Assembly: GCA_002869165.1 (NCBI GenBank)
Contig: PKTK01000001.1
Location: 157,006 to 221,005, forward strand
DNA length: 64,000 nt
Origin: Candidatus Parcubacteria bacterium
GTDB lineage: Bacteria; Patescibacteriota; Patescibacteriia; Patescibacteriales; UBA12075
Direction: 5' to 3'
The position numbers and the translations under genes are program-made. Positions 8,520 to 61,869 of the stretch are shown piece after piece. How positions within the stretch are numbered: position 1 is the first letter of the stretch; each line of letters begins with the position of its first letter. The notes under the pieces were generated by a model that did not search any database, was not told where the DNA came from, and worked only from the letters and a program-made list of their open reading frames with translations.

Positions 8520-8520
8520 A

Positions 8521-10545: not shown

Positions 10546-10547
10546 AC

Positions 10548-10595: not shown

Positions 10596-10609
10596 ATTTA
10601 TTATTTTAT

Positions 10610-28595: not shown

Positions 28596-31500
28596 ATGAT
28601 TTTTAAAAAGTTTACAATTAAATTTTTAATAGTAAGTGTTTTATTATTTAGTTTTGTTTTTGCTGGTAGTTCACGGGCTGTAGGAATGGAAGTTATGGTT
28701 GGCGATAAGACTCATATAGGTACCACCATCGCACAGATGGGGAAAGATGTGGCAAATTGGGCTAAAGACTATTCCTATCAGCTGTATGAATGGACAAGAG
28801 ATGAAGGTATAGCCCTGGCTTACAAGAAGGCAGTGGGTTATTTTTTAAAGCAGTTAGCTTATGATGCGGCTACATACTTAGCAACCGGTGACAAGGGACA
28901 GGATTCTATGTTTTACACTGAGAATTGGGGGGATTATTTAAGCAATGTAGGAGATAATGCAGTTGGTCATTTTTTGGAAGAACTCGGTCAAAGTGGAACC
29001 GCCAAGTTTAATCTTTGTAATCCAGGAATTGATATTACAGCTAAGATCGGTTTAGGTATCGCTGAAACAAAGAATCCTGACGAACCTGACTGTACATTTA
29101 CTGAAATGAAAAATAATTGGGAATCAGAACTAGAAAGAGATGATTTTTTGCAACGTTTTGGTAGTATGTTTGAACCTGAATCAAATGACTTTGGTATAGC
29201 TCTTTCCCTTCATATGGAAGCAATGGAAGTAGAAATAGCTGAAAAGGAGGCAGCTACTTTAACCAGAGATGTAAATGATGGATTTAAAGATGTGACAGAA
29301 GGTATTAGTGGAGCTATCAAGACTCCTGGGGCGGTTATTAGAGATTATACAAATGATGTGATTGAAAAATCGGGTGAGAATTATTTTACATACACTGGTC
29401 ATATTTTGGCTGACGCGATTGATGTTTTTACCACCACACTTACAGGCAAGCTACTTGAGGAGTGGTTGCGAAAGGGATTGGCTAGATCAAGCGAAGACAC
29501 CAGCTATACTGGTGATTGGGGGGATTTTAGTTCAAGTGGAGGTTCATATTCAGGCGGTAGTTTAAGCTCTCGTGGCAGCTCAGGTTCTAGTGGTGGTTCT
29601 GGTTCTAGCTCGGGTGGTTCTGGTAGTTCTAAATCAAGCGGTTCTTCGAGTTACTCCAGCGGAGGTGGTTCATCAAACTATGAAAGTTCTGGGTCAAGTG
29701 GCTCTGGTATCACTCAGGCCAAAAAACAATTCGAATCATTAATTGAGCCAGATTTTGCTATAAGAGGAGACTATAATGCTATGAATGAACTAGTTGCATG
29801 TTCTGACCCGGTAAATGCTGGGCCAAATGAATGTGTGGTTACAAATAATTTCAGACAAGCCATAGAAAACAGAATGACAGTTGGTGAAGCCATGGAGGAT
29901 GAATATATTAGTAAATACGGAGTGTTTGGCTTCAAGGCTGATGGGCTTGAGCCAGCTTATAATGAAGGTGTTCCATATAGGTCTATGATGATTTTGAGAA
30001 AATACAGGATCGTACCAGTTGGGTGGGAGTTGGCAGCGCAATATATCATGGAAAATAGAGAAAATCTTCACAGGACTTTTAGTCTTTATGATATGATAGC
30101 TTGTTTTGATCCAGATGATAGATATGTTGGCTATGAAGGTGAGAATAACAATGCTTGGTGTGAAGGATTGGTGGATCCAAGCTGGGTACTTAAGTCACCG
30201 CAGAATTTTTGTAAACGAGAAGGGGCTGGTCCACATATTATAACAGCTCAAGTTTTTGGAGAAGGGAATGATTCTAAATATATGATTACTAGAAACGAAG
30301 ATTATTGCGCTGATGAACAGACATGTATCATGGAAAATGATGATGGTAGTTGTGATATGTATGGTTACTGTACTGAGGATAGACGAAAATATAATTTTGA
30401 AGGTGAATCATGTGATCCAAGGTATAATAGTTGTGAGACTTTTAGATCTAGTAATGGCAGTACTCTCGGGTTGTTACAAAATACTTTGGATTATGAAACT
30501 TGCGATTCTTCAAATGTAGGTTGCGAGATGTATGCTTATGCTACTTCATATGAAGATGGTTTAGGAGTGTATGATCTAGATACTGGTAAAGTAAATTGGG
30601 CTTCGACAACAGGTCGGATAAGACTTGATGAAGATGCCTCGGAGTGCGATGAGGAAAATGAAGGTTGTCATTCTTTTATTCGAACAAACCCAGGTCTAGG
30701 TGTAAATTTACTACCTAATTCAGATTTTGAAGACTATGATTATGAAAAAGGTGAATTTGCTTATTGGGGTAGCGATATTGGCACTCAGTATTATGATGAA
30801 AATCTAGGTGTTAATACAGTTTTACTGAACAATAATTTTGTTCATAGTGTTGTAATTGACGCGCTTGATTACATGACAGGAGCCAGTGACTATGACCTAG
30901 GGGGTAATATTTTTACCTTGTCTTTTTATATTAGAAATTGTAACGGTGAGGTCAGGTTAGGTGAGACAACCAAGACTATAAATGCCAGTTCAGGCCAAGA
31001 CTGGTCTTATGTGGCTTTGAGTAATACCTTTCCAGAAGGTAGTGGAAATGTGATTGAAATAGAATTTTTAAATACGGAAGGATGCTATATGGACGGCATT
31101 AAACTTGAAAGAAATAGTCCAGAAGCAGATGGCGTACCTACAGAATATGTTCGTTATGGTGAAGTAGGGACTATATTTGAAAGATTAATTCCAGACTATC
31201 TTTTTGCTAGTTGCTACATGGATAGTGATGAAAATGGCTTCTTGGAGATGAGATTGGATGCTCCTGATGTTTGTAGTGATTATGCCAGGTATTGCACAGC
31301 CAAAGAAGTGAATTGTGATATGTACACATCAGAAAGCGATAATTTCAGTGTTCCAGCTGTTGTGTCAGCTAGTGATTATTGTCCTTCAGAATGTGTTGGT
31401 TTTGATTTGTTCATGCAAACCGAAACTGATTTTGAAGAATCAGAAACAGAGCTTTTAATACCTGATACAGCGGATACTTGTAGCGCAGTAGAAGTAGGAT

Positions 31501-34500
31501 GTGATGAATTTACCAATCTAGACGAAACTTTTAGTGGTGAGCAAAGAGAATATTTCAAGAATTTGAGACAATGTGTTTCTCCTGAAACCACTACTTGCAA
31601 TCCTTTCTTTGTATGGGAGGGATCTGATGAAACCGGTTATCAGCTTCGTGTACACAATCTTGATACAGACGGTAGTGGTATTAGAAATGTTGACGCAACG
31701 GTCTCGGCTTGTAGTACAGATATTTTGGACGCTAATTATGACCCAGCTTGTCGAGAATTCTATGATGCCGATGGTCAAGTTTATTTCGAGATTTATTACA
31801 ATACTTTTTCTTGTACTGATGAGTGTTATCCTTATCGCAGGACTATCATGGACGACGATTCAGACCTTGAAGCTGCTAATTGTGCTTATGGCGGTGGAGC
31901 TATGCAGACAGTTGGTGGGATAGAGCATTGTGTTTATATGGCAGTACCATCAGAAGGAGAAACATGTAGTGCTGAAGCAGCTGGTTGTAGGGAATACAAT
32001 GGTAATAGTGGTGCTAATTCTAGAATTTTGTTTGAAACAAGCTTTGAAGATGGCACTGACATGAATTGGGAAGGCGGCGAAAACAGCACAGCTTCAGTTA
32101 TTGCAGGCGAGCATTCACTGGCAATTGATACGAGCGTCTATTTTGAACTAGGAGATACTTTGATTGAGAGTAGATCCTACGTATTACAATTTTTAGTTTT
32201 TACAAACGATGCAAATGCAATTACAGAAATAGCTATTGAAAACCCAAATACAAATGAAAAAACAAGCTTTTTACCTGAAGATGGTTTAGCTATTAGCGCA
32301 GGTGGATGGCAAAGTTTAGAGTTAAATATCGAGAAATTGGACCATGAAATTGATGTTGGGGTAGAAAGAATTGTTATAGAAACAAGTTCAAATGTATTTT
32401 TTGATAATATTAGATTGACTGAAATTGAGGATAGGTATTATTTAATTGAAAATACTTTGGCAGATAATTGCGAATACGTAAATGCTGATCCAAGTGGAGA
32501 GTTACTAGATGATCATGGCTTCTATGCTGGTTGTGATGCGTATAATGATAGAGATGGTGATGTTCATCATTTGCACGAATTCAGTAATCTGTGTTCAGAG
32601 GATGCTGTGGGTTGTGAATTAATGATTGACACTCACAACTATAGTAGCTGGAAAGCAGGAAATTGGTTTGCAAGTTCGACAGATTCTTTTACCGTAGCTA
32701 CAGATACTTATGCCTATGTTGTGTATGATGAATCAAAAGTATGTAATGAAGCAGACAAAGGATGTGAGAAAGTGGGTATGCGTTACGAATACGAGTATGA
32801 TGGTGAACCGTATTATCAGTATTTTGATAGTTATATTTTCAATAATCCAGATGATTATAACGAATCTTTGTGTGAAATAGAAGCAGTCCGTTGTGATGCT
32901 TGGGAATACAGAGATGGCATAAGTTATTTTAAAGATCCTAATGATATGCTCTGTGAATGGCGCATTGAGGATGATATGGGGGTTGGGGCCTGGAATTGGC
33001 TCAAAATAGAAGCTAAACGTTGTGATTTTAATGCTGACGGGATTATCGCTACTACGACCAATGAATTTGGTGAAGTGGTAACAGGTGAAAGCGAAAGGAT
33101 CCTTTGTTCTGAATCAAGCGATTGTGGGCTTATGAATGATAATTATTGCGATGATTCAAGTCCATGTGATGGGGGTGAATGTATAGATAATCAATGCTAT
33201 GTAGCCTGTGTTTTAGATGAAAATGATTATCCATGTAAACTTGATAATAACGAAAATTATCCACCAAAAACAATCGGTTATGGTGGACCTGGCTCAATGG
33301 TGGCTCAACCACTTGGTTATCTCGAAGGTAGTAGCTGGTCAGCACTTTGCCCAGCTGGACAAGGTGATTGTACAGAGTATATCGATCCTCAGTCAGTTTT
33401 CTCTTTTGATGTTGATGTGTTGAAGCCTTATACTTTATATATCAGTGAAGATAGTACTTGGCCTGAATCTGAAGTTAACACCTCTTGTGACGTTTATTAT
33501 GTTTTTGATAATGAAACCAATAGACTAGTTGATGAGTCGTTAGTTGATGAACCAACTTTGTTTTATTATTATGGCGAAGAAGAATGCACCTTTAATCCTG
33601 ATTCTTACGAGATAAGAAAAGCTGTGGTTGATTATCAATTGGAAAATACACTTGATAAAGAAACTTGTAATGGCATAGTTGATTTTGAAGAGGGTTGTGT
33701 GCTTTTAAATGAAAGAGTGGTAGAATCAGCAGATACATATAATAAATTAATTTTTGACTCAACAGCTGATTACACTTTGCCTGCCTCACCAGTTTTAGCT
33801 GAGCCAGGAGATACCAATCAACTTCTCAAAGTAACACCAGATAGGGTATGCAATACCTGGCTGTCTTGTCGAAGTTTTATTAAAGATGCTGAAGGTAATG
33901 ATGTTTGTTATGATGTTGGGCTTTGTGAAAGATTTGATGATAATGGAAATTGTTCGTATTTTTCTCCTAAAGAAGAAGGGGTGAACCAAGTCTATACTTC
34001 TTCAGGTGATTTGGATATCAGTAATTTAACTGGCTATTCACTGGTTGGTTACAGTCCTGATACTTCTGAATTCGCTCAGTATAAGGTTGGTGATATGGAG
34101 CAGGTAGGTCAGTTAGCAGAGGTGCCTAATGGTAGCTTTGAGTTATTTGATGATAGTTTGTATCCCCTAGGCTGGACTCCAGGTACAGCTAATAATAGCG
34201 GTAATGCTGACTGGGAAAGAGATATGTTTAAGGTTATAGGAAATCCAGTTACAGCCCAAAAGGAGGGAATTGACTATCCAATGGATGGAAAAGCATTTTT
34301 AAAGTTTGGAGCCAAAGATAGTGTAAGATCTGAACCAATTGATTTGGTGCCAGGCTCAGAATACATTATTACTTATTATATAAATACCAAAAACTTGGCA
34401 GCAGGACAGGCAGTTTTGGATATTAGTTCACTTGGTGGAGGAGTTTTTAATACTGAAAGATCAAGAAATTGGGAGATGAAATTTCATAGATTTACAGCCG

Positions 34501-36278
34501 GTGGCAATACTGATGCCCGGATTGAATTTTTTACTTCAAATGGTGATGGGAACGTTTATATAGATAATGTGTCTATTAGGCCTGCTTTGGACACAAAAGA
34601 TAACTGGAGTGTTTCTCAAACTTGTCGCTTGTATCCAGAGGCTGATTCTTTGGCTTGTGATTATTATGATGAATCCGGAAAGCGTATGAAAGGTTGGTAT
34701 GGTTATTGTTTGCAATATGATAGATATCCAGGGGACCCTGATGCTTGTTTGCTTTGGTATCCGGTTGATCGAGTAAATGGAGACGGTGTTGAAGAAGGTG
34801 GTGGGTACATAGACAGAAAACCGCTCTACTATTGTACAGCTGCAGAGACTTTTATATACGGTACTAAGTGGTATAATGAAACTCCGCCTGATGGACATGA
34901 GGCAGACACTGAAACATTTGCCAAGGAAAATAATCTAGGTGTCCAAAGTAGCGGAGACATAGATGTTACTCACAGAAATCCTAATGGTTACTCTGAGGAT
35001 GAATGGACTCTTGAACAACTTGGCCTTGGTTCAGTAGAAGAGAGATGGTTGCTTTGGGAAAATATTGATCATATTACTATCAGACATTCCTCAGCATCTG
35101 TTTATTGTGATGGTAAATTCTCTGGCCCATGGGATTACTATTACCGATTTGATAAAGAAAATTCTGGTAATCCTTGTCCAAAAAATCCTGGAGGTCAAAC
35201 AGACTGCGTCCCTTGGGGTACAGAGGGTCTACATCAAGGAGGAGTGAGAAATGATGATGAGTGGTATGAAGAACTTGATCCTATCGCGCATGAATTATTT
35301 GATGATGACCCTAAGTATGACAAAAACACTACTACAGGAGGTATTGAAATATTGTCAACTCAAGAGTTTGGCGGAGATTTGGTGGCAGCAAGTGCGGGCG
35401 AATATTTTGGTGGTATCAAAACTTCAAATTTTGACTCATATTGTAATCATCCTGACTATAAGATACTTGAAGTAGCAATATACCCTAAGTCAGCTTTTTG
35501 TAAGACAGTTATTCAAACTGTGACTCCTATGGGTCAGAGTATGCACTATAGTGCGAACGTGTATGAAGGAAGTGATAAAGAATACCCATGCAATTCCGGC
35601 ATTAGTTACGCAGATTTCTTTACTTGCGACTATATGGCTGATTTGGCTCCTTTTGGCGCTGTGTCTCAGCCAGGCCTTGAAATAAATGATTGGGCTATTA
35701 TGTCGAATCCATACATGTGGGATTCACGAGAAGGCACGCCAAACAACCAGCCACTTTTTTATGAAGAGCCAAGTTCATCCATGTATGGCACTTCTCAAGC
35801 TCGTATGGGGCAGCATCTCACAGAAGGTACGATAACAGGTAATTTATTTAGAAAATATTACGGTAAGTGGACTTTCCAGTCAGATGCAGAGGGCGGAGAT
35901 GGTATTCAGCAAGTAATGGGGCATTATGAATTTAGTGGAGCTCCAAATGCGGGTGGAGGCGGAAGTGCTCCAAATGTATCAAACGCAAAAACCATCCCTT
36001 CGAATGGTGTGCAGATAAATCAGTTAGTAAATCTAGTCTTTACTATAGATGTAAATGAAAATCAATTACCTCTTACAAGTCTTAAGATAGATTGGGGAGA
36101 TGAAACCGAAACAACGATTTCTGGAATAGAAATGAGAGACAGACCAGAACCAGAAGAACCTTTTAGTATGTATCATATATATAGTGAACCAGGTGGATAC
36201 GGTATTAGAATCGAGGCTAGGGATAATTGGGGAGCAGAAGGTAGTGGCGGAACCAGTGTAAGAGTTTCAGGGTATTAA
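28596..36278 (+). CDS. giant (2560 aa) secreted Cys-rich surface protein with three CenC-like carbohydrate-binding modules and a PKD-like C-terminal domain
   Basis: Signal peptide; S/G linker (about 29521-29712); NSDFEDY..W, TSFEDG..W and NGSFELF..W module starts, each closed by (F/Y)(M/F/I)D(G/N)(I/V) motifs; terminal IDWGDE...YHIYSEPGGYGIRIEARD. Confidence 0.8.
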   Translation: MIFKKFTIKFLIVSVLLFSFVFAGSSRAVGMEVMVGDKTHIGTTIAQMGKDVANWAKDYSYQLYEWTRDEGIALAYKKAVGYFLKQLAYDAATYLATGDKGQDSMFYTENWGDYLSNVGDNAVGHFLEELGQSGTAKFNLCNPGIDITAKIGLGIAETKNPDEPDCTFTEMKNNWESELERDDFLQRFGSMFEPESNDFGIALSLHMEAMEVEIAEKEAATLTRDVNDGFKDVTEGISGAIKTPGAVIRDYTNDVIEKSGENYFTYTGHILADAIDVFTTTLTGKLLEEWLRKGLARSSEDTSYTGDWGDFSSSGGSYSGGSLSSRGSSGSSGGSGSSSGGSGSSKSSGSSSYSSGGGSSNYESSGSSGSGITQAKKQFESLIEPDFAIRGDYNAMNELVACSDPVNAGPNECVVTNNFRQAIENRMTVGEAMEDEYISKYGVFGFKADGLEPAYNEGVPYRSMMILRKYRIVPVGWELAAQYIMENRENLHRTFSLYDMIACFDPDDRYVGYEGENNNAWCEGLVDPSWVLKSPQNFCKREGAGPHIITAQVFGEGNDSKYMITRNEDYCADEQTCIMENDDGSCDMYGYCTEDRRKYNFEGESCDPRYNSCETFRSSNGSTLGLLQNTLDYETCDSSNVGCEMYAYATSYEDGLGVYDLDTGKVNWASTTGRIRLDEDASECDEENEGCHSFIRTNPGLGVNLLPNSDFEDYDYEKGEFAYWGSDIGTQYYDENLGVNTVLLNNNFVHSVVIDALDYMTGASDYDLGGNIFTLSFYIRNCNGEVRLGETTKTINASSGQDWSYVALSNTFPEGSGNVIEIEFLNTEGCYMDGIKLERNSPEADGVPTEYVRYGEVGTIFERLIPDYLFASCYMDSDENGFLEMRLDAPDVCSDYARYCTAKEVNCDMYTSESDNFSVPAVVSASDYCPSECVGFDLFMQTETDFEESETELLIPDTADTCSAVEVGCDEFTNLDETFSGEQREYFKNLRQCVSPETTTCNPFFVWEGSDETGYQLRVHNLDTDGSGIRNVDATVSACSTDILDANYDPACREFYDADGQVYFEIYYNTFSCTDECYPYRRTIMDDDSDLEAANCAYGGGAMQTVGGIEHCVYMAVPSEGETCSAEAAGCREYNGNSGANSRILFETSFEDGTDMNWEGGENSTASVIAGEHSLAIDTSVYFELGDTLIESRSYVLQFLVFTNDANAITEIAIENPNTNEKTSFLPEDGLAISAGGWQSLELNIEKLDHEIDVGVERIVIETSSNVFFDNIRLTEIEDRYYLIENTLADNCEYVNADPSGELLDDHGFYAGCDAYNDRDGDVHHLHEFSNLCSEDAVGCELMIDTHNYSSWKAGNWFASSTDSFTVATDTYAYVVYDESKVCNEADKGCEKVGMRYEYEYDGEPYYQYFDSYIFNNPDDYNESLCEIEAVRCDAWEYRDGISYFKDPNDMLCEWRIEDDMGVGAWNWLKIEAKRCDFNADGIIATTTNEFGEVVTGESERILCSESSDCGLMNDNYCDDSSPCDGGECIDNQCYVACVLDENDYPCKLDNNENYPPKTIGYGGPGSMVAQPLGYLEGSSWSALCPAGQGDCTEYIDPQSVFSFDVDVLKPYTLYISEDSTWPESEVNTSCDVYYVFDNETNRLVDESLVDEPTLFYYYGEEECTFNPDSYEIRKAVVDYQLENTLDKETCNGIVDFEEGCVLLNERVVESADTYNKLIFDSTADYTLPASPVLAEPGDTNQLLKVTPDRVCNTWLSCRSFIKDAEGNDVCYDVGLCERFDDNGNCSYFSPKEEGVNQVYTSSGDLDISNLTGYSLVGYSPDTSEFAQYKVGDMEQVGQLAEVPNGSFELFDDSLYPLGWTPGTANNSGNADWERDMFKVIGNPVTAQKEGIDYPMDGKAFLKFGAKDSVRSEPIDLVPGSEYIITYYINTKNLAAGQAVLDISSLGGGVFNTERSRNWEMKFHRFTAGGNTDARIEFFTSNGDGNVYIDNVSIRPALDTKDNWSVSQTCRLYPEADSLACDYYDESGKRMKGWYGYCLQYDRYPGDPDACLLWYPVDRVNGDGVEEGGGYIDRKPLYYCTAAETFIYGTKWYNETPPDGHEADTETFAKENNLGVQSSGDIDVTHRNPNGYSEDEWTLEQLGLGSVEERWLLWENIDHITIRHSSASVYCDGKFSGPWDYYYRFDKENSGNPCPKNPGGQTDCVPWGTEGLHQGGVRNDDEWYEELDPIAHELFDDDPKYDKNTTTGGIEILSTQEFGGDLVAASAGEYFGGIKTSNFDSYCNHPDYKILEVAIYPKSAFCKTVIQTVTPMGQSMHYSANVYEGSDKEYPCNSGISYADFFTCDYMADLAPFGAVSQPGLEINDWAIMSNPYMWDSREGTPNNQPLFYEEPSSSMYGTSQARMGQHLTEGTITGNLFRKYYGKWTFQSDAEGGDGIQQVMGHYEFSGAPNAGGGGSAPNVSNAKTIPSNGVQINQLVNLVFTIDVNENQLPLTSLKIDWGDETETTISGIEMRDRPEPEEPFSMYHIYSEPGGYGIRIEARDNWGAEGSGGTSVRVSGY

Positions 36279-36282: not shown

Positions 36283-36885
36283 ATGGCAATAACTAGCGAG
36301 TTTACAAGCGTAGATTCAAGAATAATGAATCGTAATATGGAGGAGGAGGCTGCTCGGGAAATAAGAGCGGATCAGGTTCAGGCCAGAAGAGAGGAAGAGA
36401 ATGAATTAAGTGATGATGAATTAAAAGAGGAGCTTAGAGAAAGTCTTGAGGACATTGCTAGAAAGAGATCAGTAGCAAGTGCTCTAGAGCATGGCGTAAA
36501 GCTTGGTTTTATTCTGAGACAGGAGATCAATGATTTGCGATTTGATGGTTTAGTTTTTTGGTTTGTTTTGGGGATATCTTTCGTGAAAGATTTTTCGGAC
36601 TTGTTTACTGGAACATTAGGTGGAATTTTTACAAATTGGTTTATACCCCCTATTTTATTTATAGTTTTTTTCTTGAGAAAGTCTTATTTAAAAAAATATA
36701 TTATTAAAAAAATAGGTTATAAATTTTTTATTTTGGTGATTGCTGAATTTTTGCCTGTTACAAGTGGGTTCCCAAATTATCTTATATCTACTATTTTGTT
36801 AAGAATGAATGTTGATAAAAAACGGAGAAAAAAGGATAAAGAGTTAGAGCTACTGGAAGAGGAAATAAAAAAATTAAAAGCTTAA
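36283..36885 (+). CDS. small membrane protein with acidic N-terminus and basic coiled-coil tail
   Basis: 3 hydrophobic segments; 4-nt gap upstream; the stop abuts the next start (TAAATG). Confidence 0.65.
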   Translation: MAITSEFTSVDSRIMNRNMEEEAAREIRADQVQARREEENELSDDELKEELRESLEDIARKRSVASALEHGVKLGFILRQEINDLRFDGLVFWFVLGISFVKDFSDLFTGTLGGIFTNWFIPPILFIVFFLRKSYLKKYIIKKIGYKFFILVIAEFLPVTSGFPNYLISTILLRMNVDKKRRKKDKELELLEEEIKKLKA

Positions 36886-38655
36886 ATGATAAAAAATTTA
36901 ATAAAAAATCGAAAACAGTTATTATCCATATTTATTTTGGCTTTTTTTTGTATATCATTTTTTAAAGTAGATTATGCTTTGGCTGATGCGGGAGATATGA
37001 TAGTTGGCTTTGCTAAAGGGGCTGTTCTATCAGCTATTGGAGTAGCCGTTTCTTTAATTGTTAGTTTGTTAGGCTTTTTCCTTAATTTAGTAACTTCAGC
37101 AGTTTTTGTAGTTGCTAAATATAATAATTTTGTTAATGAATTTGCTGTTACAGAAGGCTGGGAGCAAGTAAGAGATCTTTGTAATATGTTTTTCATATTA
37201 ATTCTTTTGGTGATTGCTTTCGCAACAATTTTGCGGGTAGAGAATTACAATATAAAAAAACTGCTTCCAAAGCTTCTTATTATGGCAGTGTTAATAAATT
37301 TTTCAAAGGCAATTGCAGGTTTTATAATAGAGTTTGCTCAAGTTGTAATGATGACTTTTATGAACGTGATTAATGCTAATGGATCAGGGTTTATTGATGC
37401 TTTTGGAGTTAGCAAGTATTTAGAAACAGTTAAAAGCGATATTTTTAATTCAGATAATATTGCAAATAATAAATTAAATTTTAATTCTACAGTTGTTGGT
37501 TATTTGTCAGCTTTGATTTTTTTGGCAGTGTCTTTATTTACAATGTTAGCCTTATTGATGGTTTTACTAATGAGAATGATAATGATTTGGGTGTATATAG
37601 TACTTTCCCCTTTAGCTTATTTATTAGCTGCTTTTCCACAAGGACAAAAGTATGCCAGTAGATGGTGGGATGAATTTATTAAATATGTTGTCACTGGGCC
37701 AGTACTTGCTTTTTTTATTTGGTTAGCACTAGTAGCTGCAAATAAAACTCCTGTATCAATGGCAGGAAATACCGCTTGTTTTGGACCAGCAGAAATGTTT
37801 TGTACTAATAGTTTTTTGCAGTTTTTAATTGCAATAGGAATGCTTATAGGTGGCTTAAAAGTAACATCAGAAATAGGTGGAGCGGTAGGAGGTGCGGCAG
37901 GTGATGCTTTGAAAAGAATAAATTCTGGAAAAGCTATGACAGTTAAGTTTGCCAAAAATAGAACTAAAGTTACAGCTAAGTGGGGAGGAAGAAGTTTGAT
38001 TGGTGGAGCTGGATTTGCTTTACAAAAAACTCCTCTCAGTAAGATTCCAGGAGCTAAGAGTGCCGGACAAGTGGCTAGTACTTGGGCTAGTGATTTAAGA
38101 AATAGTCGTTTTGAAGAAAAGGGCAAGGCTAGACTTAAGACCCTTGAAAAACTAGGAATGGGAACTAAGACTCAAGGTAAGCTAAAAGAAATAAAAGAGA
38201 ATGCAAGCGAAACTAAGGTAGGTAAGTTAGCTACAACTATTAATCGTTTTATGAGTTTTCCAGATAGAAAAGAGATGAGGGATTATAGAGAAAAGAATAG
38301 AGAATCGCTTGAGACTAGAGGAAGAATATCAGATAATACAATTAAATTAGAGGGATTAAAAGAGCAATTGAAACGAGAAGTAGATATTAACAAGAAATCA
38401 TTGTTAAAGATTGAGATTTCTTCAACTGAAAAGGCTATTCATGAAGATCAACAAAAATATGATAGCTTGCAGAAAGATATTAAAGATAATTTTTCTAGTA
38501 TTGCAAAAAGTCAAGGAAGTGTTACAAGCGGTGCTTTGGCAACGGGAGAAGCCAAGAGAGCAAAAAAGAAAAAGACTGATAATTTTCAAGAAATTATTAG
38601 CGCTCAAGTTGATGAGAAGGCAAAAGATAGTGCTAGCGATACTAAAACAGCCTAA
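36886..38655 (+). CDS. polytopic membrane protein, VirB6/TrbL-like candidate
   Basis: Signal-like N-terminus, 6 or more TM segments, hydrophilic coiled-coil C-terminal third; sits upstream of PrgI/VirB4 as in Gram-positive T4SS. Confidence 0.5.
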   Translation: MIKNLIKNRKQLLSIFILAFFCISFFKVDYALADAGDMIVGFAKGAVLSAIGVAVSLIVSLLGFFLNLVTSAVFVVAKYNNFVNEFAVTEGWEQVRDLCNMFFILILLVIAFATILRVENYNIKKLLPKLLIMAVLINFSKAIAGFIIEFAQVVMMTFMNVINANGSGFIDAFGVSKYLETVKSDIFNSDNIANNKLNFNSTVVGYLSALIFLAVSLFTMLALLMVLLMRMIMIWVYIVLSPLAYLLAAFPQGQKYASRWWDEFIKYVVTGPVLAFFIWLALVAANKTPVSMAGNTACFGPAEMFCTNSFLQFLIAIGMLIGGLKVTSEIGGAVGGAAGDALKRINSGKAMTVKFAKNRTKVTAKWGGRSLIGGAGFALQKTPLSKIPGAKSAGQVASTWASDLRNSRFEEKGKARLKTLEKLGMGTKTQGKLKEIKENASETKVGKLATTINRFMSFPDRKEMRDYREKNRESLETRGRISDNTIKLEGLKEQLKREVDINKKSLLKIEISSTEKAIHEDQQKYDSLQKDIKDNFSSIAKSQGSVTSGALATGEAKRAKKKKTDNFQEIISAQVDEKAKDSASDTKTA

Positions 38656-38675
38656 AAAAGTAAATTTTTTAATAT

Positions 38676-39686
38676 ATGAACGTAAACATTGAAGAAAGCG
38701 TAAGAAAATTTAATGAGTTTCACTCAGTGGTAGTCTTTACTATTGATAATGGCAAGGTCGCCAAGAAACTTGGTGATATAGGAACTAAACATGAGGTTAG
38801 TTTGTACCCCTTGCTTATTTTTGTTTGTACTGGTGATGTTTCCGAAGATGCTATTCCTACCTATTTGAGTGAAGTTCAGGGAAAAAGTAAGATGGCAATT
38901 GATAGGATAGTGCCCGAGTTCAAGAAAGAAGTTTTAGATGTATTGGTGAGGAGACTTAATTTCTTAAATCAAGAACCTGATAAAGAAATGACTCAAAAGC
39001 AAGAAAAACAATATTTAAGAGAAATGTTTGAGAATCATTTGACAGAAGAATTCACCAATCATGAAGTGATAATAGAGGCAGTTAATGATCGGATATTTTC
39101 AATATTTGCTTCAGAACTTAATTTTAAGAATGAACTAGAGAAAATACTTTATGAAAACAATGAAAAACTAACTACCAAGAAGTTTATTTTGGATGGCAAG
39201 GTAGTTGAACCTACTATTAAAAATTGGTTGAAATATTTTATAGAGAAACGAGGTACAGAAATGATTGATAGTATAAATATGTCAGTGTTTGTTTCTCAGT
39301 CAGAAAATTCTAAAATTTTAGACGAGGATGAAAAAAGATTTTTGTTTAAGCTATTAACTCTTTATAGAAATTTGAAATTCTTTCCCCAAAGTATGCCTAG
39401 TGACGATGGAGAGGGTTGGGAGATTATACCTACTGAAAAAAAAGAAGAGGTAAGTAAAGCAGCCCAGCTTAGTAGAGAAAAGAAAACAGGCACCCAAGAG
39501 GTGGTTGAGCAACTCGGAGGAGATGTTAGTGATTATCCTGAAGGCAGTTTAGAAAGGGAAATACTAGAAGAAGAGGATGAAAAGGAAAAAGAGTATCAAA
39601 AGTTATTGCTACTGTCCAATAAATATGAAGAAGGTAGTCTTGAGAGAAGGGCAATCGAAGAGGAAATTAAAAAAATTAAAAATTAA
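38676..39686 (+). CDS. hypothetical acidic protein
   Basis: ORF track; no motif recognised; its 3' end runs into a repeat arm. Confidence 0.6.
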   Translation: MNVNIEESVRKFNEFHSVVVFTIDNGKVAKKLGDIGTKHEVSLYPLLIFVCTGDVSEDAIPTYLSEVQGKSKMAIDRIVPEFKKEVLDVLVRRLNFLNQEPDKEMTQKQEKQYLREMFENHLTEEFTNHEVIIEAVNDRIFSIFASELNFKNELEKILYENNEKLTTKKFILDGKVVEPTIKNWLKYFIEKRGTEMIDSINMSVFVSQSENSKILDEDEKRFLFKLLTLYRNLKFFPQSMPSDDGEGWEIIPTEKKEEVSKAAQLSREKKTGTQEVVEQLGGDVSDYPEGSLEREILEEEDEKEKEYQKLLLLSNKYEEGSLERRAIEEEIKKIKN

Positions 39687-39700
39687 GAATTAAAAATTAA
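39674..39700. repeat. solo copy (27/27) of the cassette-2 arm
   Basis: AATTAAAAATTAAGAATTAAAAATTAA is identical to 12371-12397; overlaps the last codons and stop of CDS 38676..39686; no inverted partner nearby. Confidence 0.85.
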
Positions 39701-39724
39701 GAATTAAGAACATCTCTCATCAAT

Positions 39725-39759
39725 TGTCATCTCGAACGAAGTGAGAGACCCCTTAAACG
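39725..39759 (+). repeat. copy of the TGTCATCTC...CCTTAAACG element
   Basis: TGTCATCTCGAACGAAGTGAGAGACCCCTTAAACG; both ends match 8806-8867. Confidence 0.7.
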
Positions 39760-39820
39760 TTCTATTATCTTTTATTTAAAGGTTTTTCAAACTCACAGGG
39801 TTTGAAGACAAATAAGAGAT

Positions 39821-39840
39821 GTGTATCTTTAAAGATACAC
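39821..39840. promoter_or_regulatory. perfect 20-bp palindrome, candidate operator
   Basis: GTGTATCTTTAAAGATACAC, 48 nt upstream of ATG 39888. Confidence 0.35.
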
Positions 39841-39887
39841 AAAGCTAAATACTTGATACTAAATACTATATACTAACAAACAAGGAG

Positions 39888-41606
39888 ATGATAAATTATC
39901 TTGAAAAATATAAAAATTTACCCAAAGAGTTAAGAGACAGGGTGTCTACCCCAGCTGTAATGGAAGCAATTCATGAATTGGAGCAGAAGTACAATGTAAA
40001 ACTAGCAACCATAATAATGCGAGTAATGGTGAGGGATATTGAGATAGAGCGTTTACATAGTCTTTTTGTATATGAAAACGGCTTGGATGATAATAATGCC
40101 AAGGAGCTTATAAAAGAGTTAAATGAAAGGGTTTTTTCTAGTATCTCTGCGTATTTAGATTATATTCATAACAGTAATGTGCGTATTCCCACTGAAGAAG
40201 GAGCTAAACAAGAACCAGTAAACACGTCTAATACGAAAAATTCAGCTGACTTTTATTTCTCAGCTGAGGATGAGGAGGAGGTTCGAAGTCAGGCAAAGGA
40301 TCTAGGTGACTTGGATAAGAGGGAGTTAATTGCCAAGCAAGTAGAAAACAAGATAGATCAGATATTGGCTGAAGTTAATGTTATTTTTAGCTCTGAGGAT
40401 ATGATGCTCCGTTTGCGTCAAATTCTTAAGACATATTTAAAAGGCGTTAGGAATAAAATAGACACTATTTCAGTTTTAAAAAGAGAAATAGAGAATGGAG
40501 GCTTAGCCTTGGATGATGAGATCGCAGATGATATTCTGAAGGTGGTTGACTTGATAAAGAAAGATGAAGCAGAACATCCAGGTCGACCCCTAGAAGAAGT
40601 TAAAAAAATTGATTTTGAAAAAGAAGAAAAAATAAAGATCGAAAAAGAAAATATAAATAACGATGTGCCATATGATTTTAGTGGTTTACAAAATCAAAAA
40701 AATATTAAAACCGATGAGCAAGACCCTGTTGTAATAGATACACAAAATAATATTGAAGAAAAGGAATCTTTGATGGTTGATAGTCTTGAAGTTGAAAATG
40801 AGCCCAATGTAGAGAAAGAAGAACAAGAAGATAAAACAAAAAACACATTACCAGATCATAATTTTGGGGAAATCAGTCCAGAGGAGAAGAGTAGCAATAT
40901 TGATCTTCGTATCCCTGAAGAAAAAGAAGAAGTAAAAGATGAAAATAAAGAAGAGCTTGTTTTTGTAAGCGATAAGATTGCTTCAGATTCTTCTCCAGCA
41001 GATAATAATTCTGTTATAGAACAAGAGCAAAAAGAAGGAGAAAAAAAAGAAGAGGAAAAAGAGATGGTTATTGACCTAAAAGCAGGTCAAGAAGATAATA
41101 ACCAGACAGAAGTTTTGGCTGAAAAAACAGAAGAGGGTAGCGGTGATGTTGGATTTAAGCCTGGCATGATGGCCAAAGCTAGAAATAGTACACCAAGCAA
41201 TAATGAATTTAAAGAAAGGTTTGCTAGTCAGTTTAATTCACAAAATAATGGCAAAGTAAGAATGGAAGACATAAAGCATGTTTCTAAATTATCAGGACCT
41301 GAAGAAGAATTGGCCTCCATGACTTTAGTTGACTTTCGCCGTTTAGGTGATTCACCTAATGAAAGAATTGATAAAATAATAAATATGTTAAATCTTTTGG
41401 AAGAAGAAAGTTTTAGTAAAAGAATGATCGGCATCAAAGCTTGGCGGAAAAGTCCTTTAAATACTATGTACAGACAACTTGGGCAAGAGAGTATGACTAA
41501 ACAAAAAGACATTAGAGAGCTTTTGTACGAAAAAGATGAAAGTGAATGTATGAGCAAAGAAGAGTTTGATGCAGTTATGCAGTTGAATAAGAAATTGAGA
41601 TATTAA
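39888..41606 (+). CDS. hypothetical protein with long E/K-rich low-complexity centre
   Basis: ORF track; AAGGAG directly abuts the ATG, so the exact start is uncertain. Confidence 0.6.
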   Translation: MINYLEKYKNLPKELRDRVSTPAVMEAIHELEQKYNVKLATIIMRVMVRDIEIERLHSLFVYENGLDDNNAKELIKELNERVFSSISAYLDYIHNSNVRIPTEEGAKQEPVNTSNTKNSADFYFSAEDEEEVRSQAKDLGDLDKRELIAKQVENKIDQILAEVNVIFSSEDMMLRLRQILKTYLKGVRNKIDTISVLKREIENGGLALDDEIADDILKVVDLIKKDEAEHPGRPLEEVKKIDFEKEEKIKIEKENINNDVPYDFSGLQNQKNIKTDEQDPVVIDTQNNIEEKESLMVDSLEVENEPNVEKEEQEDKTKNTLPDHNFGEISPEEKSSNIDLRIPEEKEEVKDENKEELVFVSDKIASDSSPADNNSVIEQEQKEGEKKEEEKEMVIDLKAGQEDNNQTEVLAEKTEEGSGDVGFKPGMMAKARNSTPSNNEFKERFASQFNSQNNGKVRMEDIKHVSKLSGPEEELASMTLVDFRRLGDSPNERIDKIINMLNLLEEESFSKRMIGIKAWRKSPLNTMYRQLGQESMTKQKDIRELLYEKDESECMSKEEFDAVMQLNKKLRY

Positions 41607-41625
41607 ATTAGTAAATGACTACATT

Positions 41626-42033
41626 GTTAAAGTGTTAAATTGTTTATGGAAAGCAAGTTTTTGATGTTAGGAGATTTAAACTCTTATTGTATTTCTTTTG
41701 GATTGTCAAATTATGTTTGGGGTGTTGTGGTTAATTGGGATAATTTTAGCAAGATAACAGTAGGGAAGCAATTTGTTAGGTCTGTAGATTCGATTTCAGC
41801 AAATACTGCAGAAGGTTTTGGCCGTTACAATAAGAAAGATAAAATAAAATTTTATAGATATAGCTTTGGCTCAGTAAAAGAATCTTTAGATTGGAATCAA
41901 AAAGCATTTTCAAGAAATTTGATAAACAAACAAGCGCATAGCCATATATATCATGAGCTTGATAAAATGCCAAAAAGAGATAAATTCATTAATTAAATAT
42001 ACTAACCAAAAATTAACAATTTAACAGTTTAAC
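41626..42033. mobile_element. inverted-repeat-bounded four-helix-bundle gene cassette (IVS-like), copy 3
   Basis: GTTAAAGTGTTAAATTGTT (41626-41644) matches the reverse complement of 42015-42033 at 18/19. Confidence 0.6.
41646..41996 (+). CDS. four-helix-bundle protein (23S rRNA IVS-protein family)
   Basis: ATG at 41646 preferred over the track's TTG at 41640; GKQFVRSVDSISANTAEGFGRYNKKDKIKFYRYSFGSVKESLDW is the family pattern. Confidence 0.8.
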   Translation: MESKFLMLGDLNSYCISFGLSNYVWGVVVNWDNFSKITVGKQFVRSVDSISANTAEGFGRYNKKDKIKFYRYSFGSVKESLDWNQKAFSRNLINKQAHSHIYHELDKMPKRDKFIN

Positions 42034-42045
42034 TATTTATATAAA

Positions 42046-42522
42046 ATGCAACAATTTACCGTACCACAATTTATTGATGTCGAAGATAAGGTGATTGGCT
42101 TTATTACTGTTAGGCAGTTTATTATACTTTTGGTAGCAGCCTTGATAATTGCTATTTTGTACAAATTGCTTTACTTTGAAACATTTATTATCAGCGCTGT
42201 TATAGTTGCTTTTATTGCTATTATTGTCGCATTTGCCAAAATAAATGGTGTTAATTTTCATATCTTTTTTACTAATTTCCTAATAACATTATTCAAACCC
42301 AATGTTAGAGTTTGGAATAATGCTTTTGGAAAAGATTATGTGAAAATTGTTGCTGAAAAGGTGGTGGAAGACTCAAAAGAACCAGAAGTGATAAAGACTT
42401 ATAGTTCTTCAAGACTTACTGAATTGTCTATGATTGTAGATACCCAGGGTGTTTTTAAGGGAACTGAGACACCTGAAGATCAGAATGTTGATTATAAAAA
42501 AACATTACATAGTAGAAATTAA
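42046..42522 (+). CDS. PrgI-family (VirB3-like) T4SS membrane protein
   Basis: MQQFTVPQFIDVEDKVIGFITVRQFIILLVAALI plus a second TM; immediately upstream of VirB4-type genes. Confidence 0.7.
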   Translation: MQQFTVPQFIDVEDKVIGFITVRQFIILLVAALIIAILYKLLYFETFIISAVIVAFIAIIVAFAKINGVNFHIFFTNFLITLFKPNVRVWNNAFGKDYVKIVAEKVVEDSKEPEVIKTYSSSRLTELSMIVDTQGVFKGTETPEDQNVDYKKTLHSRN

Positions 42523-42533
42523 TAATTATATTT

Positions 42534-43223
42534 ATGCCTGAGAGAGGAAATTTATCTAGAAAAAAAATTAGACAATCAACACAACAATTTCTTGATATTG
42601 CTGAGATCAAAGAAGATGTTGTTATCATGAGAGACGGGACTCTTAGAGGAGTGTTGCTTGTTTCTAGTATTAATTTTGCCTTAAAAAGTGAAGAAGAGCA
42701 AGATTCAATAATATCAGCTTATATTAGTTTTTTGAATAATATTAATTTTCCCATTCAAATAGTGATTCAATCAAGAGAGTTGAATATTGAAGGCTATTTG
42801 AATATGCTCGAAGAGAAAAGAAAAGTACAGACCAATGAACTTTTGAAGATTCAAACCAGTGAATACATTCATTATATCTCAGAACTTGTTTCTATGAGTA
42901 AGATTATGAACAAGCGTTTTTATATTGTTATCCCATATAACCCATTAGCCGACAAGGAAAAATCCCTGGGATCCAAGTTAATGGATGTCCTTAGGCCAGC
43001 GACTGTTATTAAAATGAAAGAGGAAAAGTTTTTGAAAAATAAGGCAGAGTTAAATCGTCTGATAGAGAACGTGATGGGAGGTCTTACTTCGGCTGGTCTG
43101 CATTCAGTACAGCTAGACACCCAGAGCTTAATAGAACTTTATTATAATTCTTATAATCCTGGCACCTCAAGTTTGCAGAGAATGGCAGATGTTAAGGATT
43201 TGAGAATTTCTAGAGATTTATAA
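42534..43223 (+). CDS. T4SS-associated protein resembling the N-terminal domain of Gram-positive VirB4 proteins
   Basis: QQFLDIAEIKEDVVIMRDGTLRGVLLVSSINFALKSEEEQDSIISAYISFLNNINFPIQIVIQS; pattern recalled from Orf16/TcpF-type VirB4 N-termini; no ATPase motifs. Confidence 0.4.
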   Translation: MPERGNLSRKKIRQSTQQFLDIAEIKEDVVIMRDGTLRGVLLVSSINFALKSEEEQDSIISAYISFLNNINFPIQIVIQSRELNIEGYLNMLEEKRKVQTNELLKIQTSEYIHYISELVSMSKIMNKRFYIVIPYNPLADKEKSLGSKLMDVLRPATVIKMKEEKFLKNKAELNRLIENVMGGLTSAGLHSVQLDTQSLIELYYNSYNPGTSSLQRMADVKDLRISRDL

Positions 43224-43239
43224 ATTTTATAATTTAAAT

Positions 43240-45177
43240 ATGTTTGATTTTTTAAGTTCACAAAAGACAAAGCTAAATAAACAAAATCAAGACGCTAAAG
43301 CAGAACAGCCAGTAGAAGCTAATATTGAAGAGACCAAGGAATACATTGAAGAGGAAAAAGCCTATCGGCGTGGTGTGATAGGTATAAAAGACTTGATCGC
43401 TCCAGCTAGTATGAAAGTAACCCCTAGCTATCTTGAGCTTGGTAATAAAAAGGTTCGTACCATTTTTGTGATGACTTATCCTCGCTATATTACAGTTGGA
43501 TGGTTTGCGCCAATTATCAACCTTAATTCCATGTTTGATGTTTCAATGTTCTTCTATCCAGTGGATTCAGCAGTGATATTGAAACAGTTAAAAAACAAAG
43601 CTGGTAATATTGAAGCTCAGCTTTATGAAGATCAGGAAAAAGGTGCAGCTAGAGATCCAATGAGAGAGAACGCTTTGAGAGATATTGAGGCTTTGCGTGA
43701 TGCCTTGACTCAGGGTGTAGAGAAGTTTTTTCAGTTTGCCTTATATGTAACAATGTACGAGGATGATTTAGTGACTTTGGATAGACAAAGCAGGACAGTT
43801 GAAAATCTTTTAGGAGCTAGGTTGGTATATTCTAAAAAAGTTTTTTATCAGGCAGAACAGGGCTTCAATTCAACTCTACCAGTTTGTAATGATGAGCTGA
43901 TTGTTAGTTTTAATATGAACTCTTCTCCAATTGCTTCGTCATTTCCATTTATTTCCAGTGACCTTTCAACAGATAATGGAATTCTTTATGGAATCAATAG
44001 ACACAACAACAGTTTGATATTATTTGACAGATTCAGTTTGCAAAACGCCAATGCTGTTGTTTTTGCTACTTCTGGTGCTGGTAAGTCATATGCAATCAAG
44101 CTTGAAGTTTTGCGTTCATTGATGCTTGGAACAGATGTGATTATCATTGATCCTGAGTATGAATATAAGCATTTATCTGAAGCAGTGGGAGGCACTTACT
44201 TTAATTTCTCTTTGTCTGGAGAGAACAAGATTAATCCTTTTGACTTGCCTCGAGCTGTAGGTGGAAATGCAAAATCTGGAGACATTATTCGTAATGCGGT
44301 TATTACAGTTAAGGGTCTTCTCAGATTAATGCTTGGTGATTTGACCCATGAGGAGGATTCTATTGTTGACCAGGCTTTGTTACAAACATATGCCAAAAAG
44401 GATATAACCCCTGATAGTGATTTGGCTAATGTTGAAGCTCCTCTTATGCAAGATTTTAAAGAAATACTTGAAGGTATGAATGGTGGAGCTAGTATTGCTC
44501 TTAGACTTAATAAATATACCGAAGGAACCTTTTCGGGTTTATTTAATAGCCCAACTAATGTCAGAATGAAGAATAAATTAATTTGTTTTTCTGTTAGAGA
44601 CTTGGAAGATGAATTAAGGCCAATTGCTATATATATGATTATTAATTATATATGGAATGTTGTTCGAAGTGAGATGAAGAAGAGAATATTGGTAATTGAT
44701 GAGGCTTGGTGGCTGATGCAATACGAGGATTCAGCCAAGTTTGTATATGCTATGGCAAAACGTTGTCGTAAATATTATTTAGGAATTACTACCATCACAC
44801 AAGATGTAAATGACTTTTTGGTCTCACCATATGGCCAAGCTATTGTAACCAACTCTTCTTTGCAGTTATTGCTCAAGCAGTCAACCGCGTCAATTGATCT
44901 AGTACAAAAAACATTTGCTCTAACAGAAGGAGAGAAATATTTATTACTAGAATGCGGGATTGGTGAAGGTATATTCTTTGCTGGGGCAAAGCATGCAGCC
45001 ATTAAGGTAGTAGCATCTTATACTGAAGATCAGCTTATCACATCTGATCCTCGTCAGATCATGGAGATTGAGCAAGCCAAAAAAGAATTTTCAGATAGCA
45101 TGAATACTGACTCAGGAGCCAGACAGAGTTCCACAGATATTGCCGATCCTGAGGGTGTTGAAGACATGGATATTTAA
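43240..45177 (+). CDS. VirB4/TraE-type T4SS ATPase
   Basis: Walker A FATSGAGKSYAIK, Walker B RILVIDEAWWLM, TQDVNDF; N-domain YPRYITVGWFAPIINL. Confidence 0.8.
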   Translation: MFDFLSSQKTKLNKQNQDAKAEQPVEANIEETKEYIEEEKAYRRGVIGIKDLIAPASMKVTPSYLELGNKKVRTIFVMTYPRYITVGWFAPIINLNSMFDVSMFFYPVDSAVILKQLKNKAGNIEAQLYEDQEKGAARDPMRENALRDIEALRDALTQGVEKFFQFALYVTMYEDDLVTLDRQSRTVENLLGARLVYSKKVFYQAEQGFNSTLPVCNDELIVSFNMNSSPIASSFPFISSDLSTDNGILYGINRHNNSLILFDRFSLQNANAVVFATSGAGKSYAIKLEVLRSLMLGTDVIIIDPEYEYKHLSEAVGGTYFNFSLSGENKINPFDLPRAVGGNAKSGDIIRNAVITVKGLLRLMLGDLTHEEDSIVDQALLQTYAKKDITPDSDLANVEAPLMQDFKEILEGMNGGASIALRLNKYTEGTFSGLFNSPTNVRMKNKLICFSVRDLEDELRPIAIYMIINYIWNVVRSEMKKRILVIDEAWWLMQYEDSAKFVYAMAKRCRKYYLGITTITQDVNDFLVSPYGQAIVTNSSLQLLLKQSTASIDLVQKTFALTEGEKYLLLECGIGEGIFFAGAKHAAIKVVASYTEDQLITSDPRQIMEIEQAKKEFSDSMNTDSGARQSSTDIADPEGVEDMDI

Positions 45178-61779: not shown

Positions 61780-61869
61780 GAAGTATCATGTAAGCATGTA
61801 GGCAAGTAAATGTATAAGTAATTTAGAAAATTATTTAAGAAATGTGTTAAATGTTTTAGTATTTTAAAT

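Follow-up and report, generated by a model that had tools for sequence, protein, structure and literature searches.

How does a small gene enclosed by inverted repeats come to lie between two genes of a T4SS-like locus, and does it belong to that locus or to an element that has the locus as its host? The locus lies in the window, by which we mean the whole 64,000-nucleotide stretch of Candidatus Parcubacteria DNA analysed here (contig PKTK01000001.1, positions 157,006 to 221,005 of the forward strand). The initial annotation, made from the letters alone, had described the third of three similar cassettes (here cassette C), with a 116-aa four-helix-bundle gene between a 572-aa unknown and a prgI-like gene. 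This arrangement is borne out by profile matches of the enclosed gene to PF05635 and TIGR02436 and of its downstream neighbour to PF12666, and the features of the junction are as follows.

39888-41606, plus strand: upstream host gene, 572 aa, without a Pfam match, ortholog of genes of 534-565 aa in relatives
41607-42045, plus strand: whole extra block from the 572-aa gene's stop to the prgI ATG, 439 nt, missing at the orthologous junction of the four closest relatives
41620-41647, plus strand: left (5') arm of about three octamer units in tandem, cATTGTTAA AGTGTTAA ATTGTTTA, running up to the start codon
41646-41996, plus strand: IVP gene in its present reading (116 aa), a PF05635 / TIGR02436 four-helix-bundle protein with the RxxxSxxxNxxE motif kept
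41973-41977, plus strand: run of five A with the frameshift; with one A fewer the ORF has 125 aa
41997-42024, plus strand: 3' part of the ORF in its ancestral form, stop codon at 42022-42024
42012-42039, plus strand: right (3') arm with the units AACAATTT AACAGTTT AACTATTT in tandem, reverse-complementary to the left arm
42046-42522, plus strand: downstream host gene of the PrgI family (PF12666, Pfam match) in the T4SS-like locus

The core of the left arm, GTTAAAGTGTTAAATTGTT (41626-41644), agrees with the reverse complement of 42015-42033 (GTTAAACTGTTAAATTGTT) at 18 of 19 positions, exactly as had been claimed, and in a repeat search the pairing extended to 28 nt in each arm (86% complementary) with 364 nt between them, for an element of 420 nt. 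Both arms are period-8 tandem repeats, at 41625-41644 on the left, where the array runs up to the ATG, and at 42013-42039 on the right. The terminal stem of the inserted block was present in both the minimum-free-energy and the centroid RNA folds. Compared with shuffled sequences, the fold of the whole cassette was not more stable (z -0.89), a result that is uninformative because the loop is coding. Further downstream of the PrgI-family gene the locus carries a TraC-like gene and a gene for a VirB4-type ATPase.

The enclosed ORF matches the Pfam family 23S_rRNA_IVP (PF05635; E 7e-18, 65 bits with a cut-off of 33.8) and TIGR02436, 'four helix bundle protein' (E 1e-17, 64 bits with a cut-off of 24). 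A profile built from the cassette C subfamily matches PDB entries 2RLD (E 6e-20) and 2GSC, both pentameric four-helix-bundle structures. The RxxxSxxxNxxE motif has been described for IVP proteins (PMC3936711). Pfam and TIGRFAM-type profile matches gave no transposase, HUH or integrase domain in the cassette C ORF, the four-helix-bundle protein being the sole ORF, and no catalytic or nucleic-acid-binding domain was recognised in the IVP protein.

The IVP proteins of relatives have 125 aa, and the cassette C ORF ends early through one extra A at 41973-41977. Once repaired it encodes 125 aa ending in ...LPKEINSLIKYTNQKLTI* and fits the family consensus to the final residue. This ancestral ORF starts about where the left arm ends and stops inside the right arm; its closing codons, TTA ACA ATT TAA, are the first unit of the right arm, and in many relatives the right arm begins 1-13 nt short of where the stop codon ends. 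The frameshifts in cassettes C and A may be real decay, as described for the Coxiella IVS ORF, or homopolymer assembly errors. In the vertically inherited groups of relatives, dN/dS of the IVP ORF was 0.03-0.16, so the protein is functional and under strong purifying selection in relatives, even though the cassette C copy is frameshifted. The kinship with the protein family of 23S rRNA intervening sequences, the octamer-array nature of the arms and the frameshifted ORF with its ancestral end in the right arm all go beyond what the initial annotation had noticed.

The initial annotation had also proposed to look for T4SS-like loci of relatives that lack the unit at the same junction, and such loci exist. 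The four closest relatives (L081, L083, L084 and L085), located via their VirB4-like protein (83-88% identical), keep synteny through the entire T4SS-like locus. The 572-aa gene and its orthologs share the conserved C-terminus ...EFDAIMELNKKLRY, and in the four relatives the orthologous junction reads ...LRY TAA, 2-4 nt and then ATG CAA CAA TTT (MQQF...), compared with 439 nt in the window. Because the junction is empty in all four, cassette C was most likely gained by insertion between the 572-aa gene and prgI, through a mechanism that is unknown; cassette loss in the closest relatives would need precise deletions and cannot be strictly excluded. No target-site duplication was evident when the filled site was compared with the four empty sites, nor at the boundaries of two near-identical cassettes in a Bacteroidales genome (L040 and L076, described below), the ends of the arms being fuzzy owing to their tandem units.

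In more distant Patescibacteria the homologous T4SS-like operon holds one to four cassettes, at other junctions too. A cassette follows prgI in L001, L169, L170 and L171, and lies immediately upstream of prgI, at the same position as in the window, in L172; in L167 cassettes from no fewer than three IVP subfamilies, each with arms of its own, occupy four consecutive junctions. The nearest relatives of the cassette C protein (70-72% identical; L001, L167, L169 and L172) are all in T4SS-like loci of Patescibacteria. Judged from this distribution, the T4SS-like operon is a recurrent host and the IVP gene is not a fixed member of it.

The design of the arms was followed in 80 loci of the cassette C subfamily from species-representative genomes (protein 57-69% identical) and in 80 metagenomic loci of the cassette B subfamily. 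The 158 related loci have arms in which units of 7-8 nt repeat in tandem, one arm being inverted relative to the other. The C subfamily is found in Patescibacteria, Bacteroidota, Ignavibacteriota/Chlorobiota, Gammaproteobacteria, Planctomycetota, Bdellovibrionales and others, and nearly all its loci have an array of ATTGTTNN upstream and of AACAATNN downstream, with a modal number of four units per arm and a median paired arm length of 31 nt at 81% complementarity. At least two units were present in both arms at 69 of 78 C-subfamily loci, compared with 12 of 479 control windows, and lag-8 autocorrelation in the flanks of the 78 relatives was 0.48-0.53 against 0.27 in controls, which marks an 8-nt periodicity. 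The position-specific consensus of the unit is A(.89) T(.87) T(.80) G(.86) T(.71) T(.88) N N. A cross-locus arm score was dropped as a null, being inflated by the common unit core, and a test on the spacer positions was used instead. At the six core positions complementarity is 0.86, equal within and between elements; at the two variable positions it is 0.69 within an element and 0.52 across elements (P = 7e-11), and on this comparison the two arms of one element are therefore shown to co-evolve. The initial annotation had named two outcomes that would refute it, arms not conserved or not paired in relatives and a gene always present as an ordinary operon member. The first is contradicted by these counts and complementarities, the second by the empty junction in four relatives and by the other junctions occupied in distant Patescibacteria.

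Unit counts of the left and right arms are not correlated (rho 0.16). The arms of the B subfamily follow this design with heptamers: close relatives have AATTA[ACT]G, the unit changes with greater distance, and it is specific to each IVP subfamily, even among the four cassettes in the one L167 operon. Two tests for selection on an RNA duplex were negative: G:U-type mismatches in the arms (101) were not commoner than A:C-type mismatches (114), and predicted arm duplex energy showed no strand difference when sense was compared with antisense (44 v 36 loci, P = 0.42). In some elements, for example L006, complementarity is limited to the 6-nt cores, and such a stem is a poor substrate for RNase III. 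The ATTGTT/AACAAT core could owe some of its conservation to the conserved C-terminal codons (K-L-T-I-stop) that the right arm overlaps, and not to factor binding.

Evidence for movement comes from near-identical copies. Two contigs of one Bacteroidales MAG (L040 and L076) carry cassettes that are 97.4% identical from left arm to right arm in unrelated flanks, and the cassettes of L022, L032, L050 and L067 are 93-96% identical, again in unrelated flanks. In other groups of relatives cassette and flanks are both ~80-86% identical, as is expected of vertical inheritance with the host operon. These alignments show that arms and gene move together as one unit and that, in some genomes, the movement was recent. 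The host junctions lie among ordinary operon genes (CitE and CitF, SdhA and SdhB, efflux pump and ATP synthase genes), and the hosts of the C subfamily include citrate lyase, succinate dehydrogenase and efflux pump operons in Bacteroidota, Ignavibacteriota and Proteobacteria. Median spacing to the neighbouring genes is 54 and 55 nt, so that the arms fill the spacers. The reading given in the initial annotation, of a discrete cassette set in a short spacer between co-directional genes, is supported. A tblastn search with a subfamily member for transfer vehicles gave nothing in 50,697 phage records and one distant match (33%) in 72,556 plasmids.

The cassettes are strongly oriented. Of 74 C-subfamily loci, 65 are in sense with both neighbours, the baseline for gene triples being 59%, and where the two host genes are themselves co-directional the cassette is in sense at 65 of 66 loci; the bias is weaker in the B-type set (35 of 55 co-oriented with both neighbours, 41% baseline). 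Because an inverted repeat folds into a hairpin whichever way it faces, it is the ORF that the bias points to. Either expression of the cassette needs host transcription, or polar, untranslated antisense insertions have been purged. A promoter/terminator scan found no excess of promoter-like sites around cassette C and no plus-strand terminator-like site. Given the sense orientation and these two results, it is plausible, although not demonstrated, that the stem is part of the polycistronic RNA.

A local profile search identified two further IVP genes in the window, each with its own flanking inverted repeat. The three cassettes proposed by the initial annotation, with sizes of 408-445 bp, are thus all real, at 420 nt (C), 445 nt (B) and 442 nt (A). 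The window also contains a hairpin without an ORF.

12371-12815, plus strand: cassette B, 445 nt, with heptamer arms (AATTAAA/AATTAAG) at 12371-12397 and 12789-12815 (27 nt, 100%)
8082-8523, minus strand: cassette A, 442 nt, with octamer arms (TAAACATG/TAAGCATA) at 8090-8122 and 8491-8523 (33 nt, 94%)
10546-10600, plus strand: ORF-less hairpin of cassette C-type units, ACTGTTAA ATGGTTAA ATTGTTAA, a loop, and AGCAATTT AGCCATTT AACAATTT

The IVP gene of cassette B is intact (12407-12763, 118 aa, 24-26% identical to C). Cassette A separates the genes for the delta and alpha subunits of a 2-oxoacid:ferredoxin oxidoreductase, and its IVP gene (8486-8134) is frameshifted within a run of seven A. When 48 window genes were scored for inverted repeats under one scheme, the three IVP genes reached 27, 23 and 16 and all others stayed at or below 10, which was also the 99th percentile of a null of 3000 random placements; the cassette arms are therefore not due to chance. 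The hairpin at 10546-10600 (dG -30.2 kcal/mol, z -9.4) is, from its units, a miniature derivative of a cassette C-type element, and ORF-less hairpins of the same units also occur at nine places in the loci of relatives. The genome has ~33% G+C, and tandem 7-8 nt arrays are common in its spacers. The C-type unit pattern by itself (20 nt) is not enriched in the window (8 matches, 4.4 expected). An octamer-like array at 61787-61809 lacks a partner and has no relation to the cassettes, and (AATTAAG)n arrays at 4084 and 39674 were rejected as IVP cassettes, having only ~60 nt in common.

Knowledge of intervening sequences (IVSs) in 23S rRNA goes back to about 1990. The IVS of Coxiella measures 428-444 nt and has a 28-bp terminal stem that is cut mid-stem by RNase III, with 2-3 tandem heptamers (GACAGAT) directly 5' of the ATG of a decaying ORF, S23p; the role of the conserved ORF and the origin of the IVSs themselves are still open (PMC4990558). 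The window cassettes are of like size (420-445 nt), with a terminal inverted-repeat stem of about the same ~28 bp around the whole ORF (the arms of cassette C are 28 nt long) and tandem 7-8 nt repeats, octamers in cassette C, up to the start codon. With the ORF-containing IVSs of helix 45 (Leptospira, Coxiella burnetii, Brucella, Haemophilus) they share the protein family (PF05635 / 'S23p'), the sense placement within a host transcript, an ORF that is often decaying, and a sporadic spread consistent with horizontal transfer. The host is different: cassette C sits at an mRNA operon junction, where RNase III excision, which is inferred only, would cleave a polycistronic mRNA and not fragment an rRNA. 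In an Rfam scan of the window the sole match was a tRNA at 59440-59523, and cassette C is not in a 23S rRNA gene (helix 25 or 45). On its sequence features cassette C is by most criteria an ORF-bearing IVS, and the feature that fails is residence in rRNA.

Members of the cassette B family do reside there. Two relatives (L119 and L157) lie in sense orientation inside 23S rRNA genes (Rfam LSU, 2334 and 2671 bits), where they stand in place of the helix 45 tip, following E. coli position ~1157-1159, the classical IVS site; the arms of L119 are 57 nt long and made of tandem units. PF05635 genes outside rRNA were already known, for example between cmr3 and cmr2 (PMC3936711), as were PF05635 genes in CPR rRNA insertions (PMC11270868). 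In a full-text literature search, which left most subscription papers outside its scope and does not exclude an earlier description, we found no description of non-rRNA IVP copies with IVS-type arms; within the same limited scope, subfamily-specific inverted tandem-unit arms, sense-only operon placement and ORF-less derivatives were not found described.

We consider it likely that cassette C is an IVS-type selfish or mobile gene cassette that lives in an mRNA operon junction of the T4SS-like locus. The element would consist of a 5' array of about three to four octamers, the gene for a 125-aa PF05635 protein filling the interior, and an inverted 3' array. It would have no promoter of its own and be transcribed along with the host operon, and translation of the ORF in phase with operon expression would avoid polarity on prgI. 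In the transcript the arms may pair into a stem of ~28 bp, and RNase III may cut this stem, so that the 572-aa and prgI messages are parted and the cassette RNA is released. This last step is borrowed from the IVSs of Coxiella, Leptospira and Salmonella, with no transcript data, and because the duplex-energy and G:U tests were both negative it remains an inference by homology. The 19 window proteins scanned did not include an RNase III. The conserved, periodic core of the units is probably the recognition site of a sequence-specific factor, for which the pentameric protein of the cassette itself would, by inference, be the obvious candidate. That the units bind such a factor, on DNA or on RNA, is attractive since the RNA-level tests were negative, the periodic core is conserved and the units are subfamily-specific, and it is compatible with processing by RNase III.

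The alternative that survives best, and that we regard as possible without favouring it, is that the arms act mainly at the DNA level as transposon-like ends. Each arm would then offer several sites, its units, to be bound by the protein of the cassette or by a recombination factor of the host, as in the sub-terminal repeats of Tn7, Mu and CACTA elements. The RNA stem would be incidental and the ORF-less hairpins MITE-like, non-autonomous derivatives. Much about the arms fits: a unit core conserved across phyla with two variable spacer positions, strict periodicity with a modal four units, neither G:U enrichment nor strand asymmetry, unit numbers uncorrelated between the arms, and a unit of its own for each IVP subfamily. 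So do the near-identical copies in unrelated flanks, whose similarity stops in the arms, the ORF-less hairpins, and the strong purifying selection on the protein. However, a 125-aa four-helix bundle is without known recombinase or nuclease chemistry, and neither the window junction nor the Bacteroidales pair showed a target-site duplication. A sense orientation at 65 of 66 loci would be unexpected of a purely DNA-level element unless antisense insertions are purged, and homologous rRNA stems are demonstrated RNase III substrates (PMC4990558). The DNA-level and IVS-type explanations are not mutually exclusive.

A wider proposal, which we put forward as speculation and think rather unlikely, would make the PF05635 cassettes a distinct autonomous class of mobile element, in which the pentamer reads its own arm units and promotes spread into transcribed non-coding junctions. 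The rRNA IVSs would then be merely its most visible members and the ORF-less hairpins its non-autonomous ones. The route might be the RNase III-excised RNA together with a reverse transcriptase acting in trans, much as with Avd in diversity-generating retroelements (DGRs), and if this were true it would also explain the sense-only orientation.

It is very improbable that the IVP gene is an ordinary accessory gene of the Patescibacteria T4SS-like operon, with the repeats as local regulatory hairpins. The closest IVP relatives (70-72%) do all lie in T4SS-like loci, one of them (L172) at the same position, but the cassette is missing from this junction in the four closest genomes and occupies different junctions elsewhere, with four cassettes of at least three subfamilies in one operon of L167. 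Moreover, the same subfamily with the same arms is found in citrate lyase, succinate dehydrogenase and efflux pump operons of other phyla, and the copy in cassette C is frameshifted.

Still harder to sustain is the idea that cassette C is the remnant of a DGR and its four-helix-bundle protein an Avd accessory. PF05635 proteins are homologous to Avd (PMC10053308), with which they share the pentameric four-helix-bundle fold and the character of a small basic protein that acts on nucleic acid with another enzyme, and cassette B gives a weak bAvd match (PF22296, E 3e-4) that falls under the curated cut-off. Yet no reverse-transcriptase domain was found in the nine proteins encoded at 36283-45177 or among the neighbours of 54 related loci, and a direct-repeat scan of 41000-42700 revealed no template/variable repeat pair, only short two-copy matches of 13-19 nt. 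The cassette gene stands alone, with inverted arms of its own on either side and without reverse transcriptase or template/variable repeats, and DGRs are not marked by arms of inverted tandem units. The notion that AT-rich, low-complexity spacers yielded the inverted repeat by chance, for which one could cite the ~33% G+C, the common 7-8 nt arrays in spacers and the 8 unit matches against 4.4 expected, can be dismissed, since three of three IVP genes but none of the 45 other genes exceed the 99th percentile of the null and the same layout recurs in at least 150 loci of unrelated organisms.

Other known elements resemble the cassettes in part. MITEs and REP/BIME hairpins are likewise short, bounded by inverted repeats, intergenic, co-transcribed with operons and present as hairpin-only copies, whereas the full-length cassette carries a small non-transposase gene and its arms are tandem 7-8 nt arrays instead of a unique terminal repeat; a target-site duplication was not evident at the fuzzy arm ends. 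Of the features of a DNA transposon, terminal inverted repeats are met and a transposase in an autonomous copy is not. Homing-endonuclease introns and inteins are similar in being selfish, in residing in transcribed, often essential genes, in having a single small ORF that fills the element, and in keeping harm to a minimum by removal or neutralisation after transcription. The cassettes, however, have no ribozyme, protein-splicing chemistry or recognisable endonuclease, and their removal, if any, would be by a host RNase without religation. Integron gene cassettes are also promoterless single-gene units, co-oriented and packed between genes, but the elements described here have inverted repeats on both sides instead of a single 3' attC, form no cassette array and always carry the same protein family as cargo; a Pfam scan found no integrase among the neighbours of cassette C. 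Without reverse transcriptase, template/variable repeats, integrase, attC or transposase, cassette C was rejected as a DGR, an integron cassette or a conventional transposon or MITE.

The value of cassette C lies in what it shows about the family, the window copy being, as it reads at present, one decaying copy of a widespread element. The same cassettes colonise ordinary protein-coding operon junctions in many phyla, up to four per operon, and rRNA thereby becomes one among many host transcripts. This would explain the abundance and odd placement of 'four helix bundle protein' genes, such as those between cmr3 and cmr2 or between enzyme subunit genes, and in annotation IVP genes should not be taken as functional members of their host operons. 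Looking ahead, the IVS-type explanation predicts RNase III-dependent cuts at defined sites in polycistronic mRNAs, and the subfamily-specific tandem units offer a concrete, testable candidate ligand for the IVP protein. We note finally that the start of the prgI-family gene, ATGCAACAATTT, includes one arm-like unit, AACAATTT.

A hairpin without an open reading frame lies at 10546-10600 of the window, immediately 5' of the DUF2207 gene (10610). It is near-perfect, with about 22 bp of stem and a loop of 4-5 nt, and it is built from the octamer units that form the arms of cassette C, the IVP (four-helix-bundle protein) gene cassette located between the 572-aa gene and prgI. Nine hairpins resembling it were found in the loci of relatives, and the element looks like a gene-less miniature derivative.

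Further gene-less structures were observed within the window. The T4SS-like operon that carries cassette C also contains a spacer of 201 nt (39687-39887) separating the 336-aa and 572-aa genes, whereas the same two genes are only 19-25 nt apart in the four closest relatives. This spacer opens with (AATTAAG)5, a unit of the type found in cassette B (the IVP cassette at 12371-12815) and here lacking an inverted partner; TCTCTCA...TGAGAGA and TGTGTATCTTTAAAGATACACA are two hairpins within it. The spacer probably represents a second insertion, of non-coding sequence. At 4084-4380 a perfect heptamer array, (TTAAGAA)8, is followed by a stretch containing AATTGTCATTCC and by a GC-rich hairpin of 15 bp (arms GACCTCCGACGTCTC/GAGACGTCGGAGGTC); about 60 nt are common to this region and the start of the 39674 spacer. 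Another structure with tandem-unit arms and no gene is the long composite hairpin at 5650-5770 (minus strand), which has a small minus-strand ORF on each side and outer arms of CTAAA-type heptamers (CTCTAAGCACTAAATTCTAAACTCTAAAC / ..TTTAGAATTTAGATATTAGAATTTAGTGCTTA).

The first ORF of the T4SS-like locus (28596-36278) encodes 2560 aa and gave no match in Pfam; its length is kept in the closest relatives (2514-2571 aa). At the other side of cassette C, the prgI start ATG CAA CAA TTT (MQQF; 42046-42060) is conserved in the orthologous starts of L081 and L083-L085, and it includes the octamer AACAATTT, which is identical to an arm unit and lies within a few bases of the insertion point. This may be coincidence or may reflect a target preference; the octamer was not seen at the insertion after prgI in the more distant Patescibacteria locus L001.

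Cassette A (8082-8523, minus strand) interrupts a 2-oxoacid:ferredoxin oxidoreductase operon, and its neighbours are:
6875-8077, alpha subunit
8521-8811, ferredoxin-like delta subunit
The start codon lies within the final arm unit of this cassette, TAAACATG, and its ORF carries a frameshift in an A7 run. In both defective IVP ORFs of the window the break falls in a poly-A run (41973-41977 and approximately 8295-8305); without reads, real decay cannot be told apart from homopolymer assembly error.

Single loci of relatives can hold several cassettes. A Patescibacteria T4SS-like operon (L167, 3076-8003) has an IVP cassette at each of four successive junctions: on either side of prgI, behind the TraC-like gene and behind virB4. 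The four belong to at least three subfamilies, each with different arm units. In L027 (1076-3378) and L069 (1136-2544) one host gene is flanked by two cassettes of the same subfamily, one copy being fragmented in L069. The near-identical cassettes of a Bacteroidales subgroup, in L022, L032, L050 and L067 (approximately 2900-3500), have a second inverted repeat beyond the octamer arms, GTAACCGTTCAC ... GTGAATGGTTAC.
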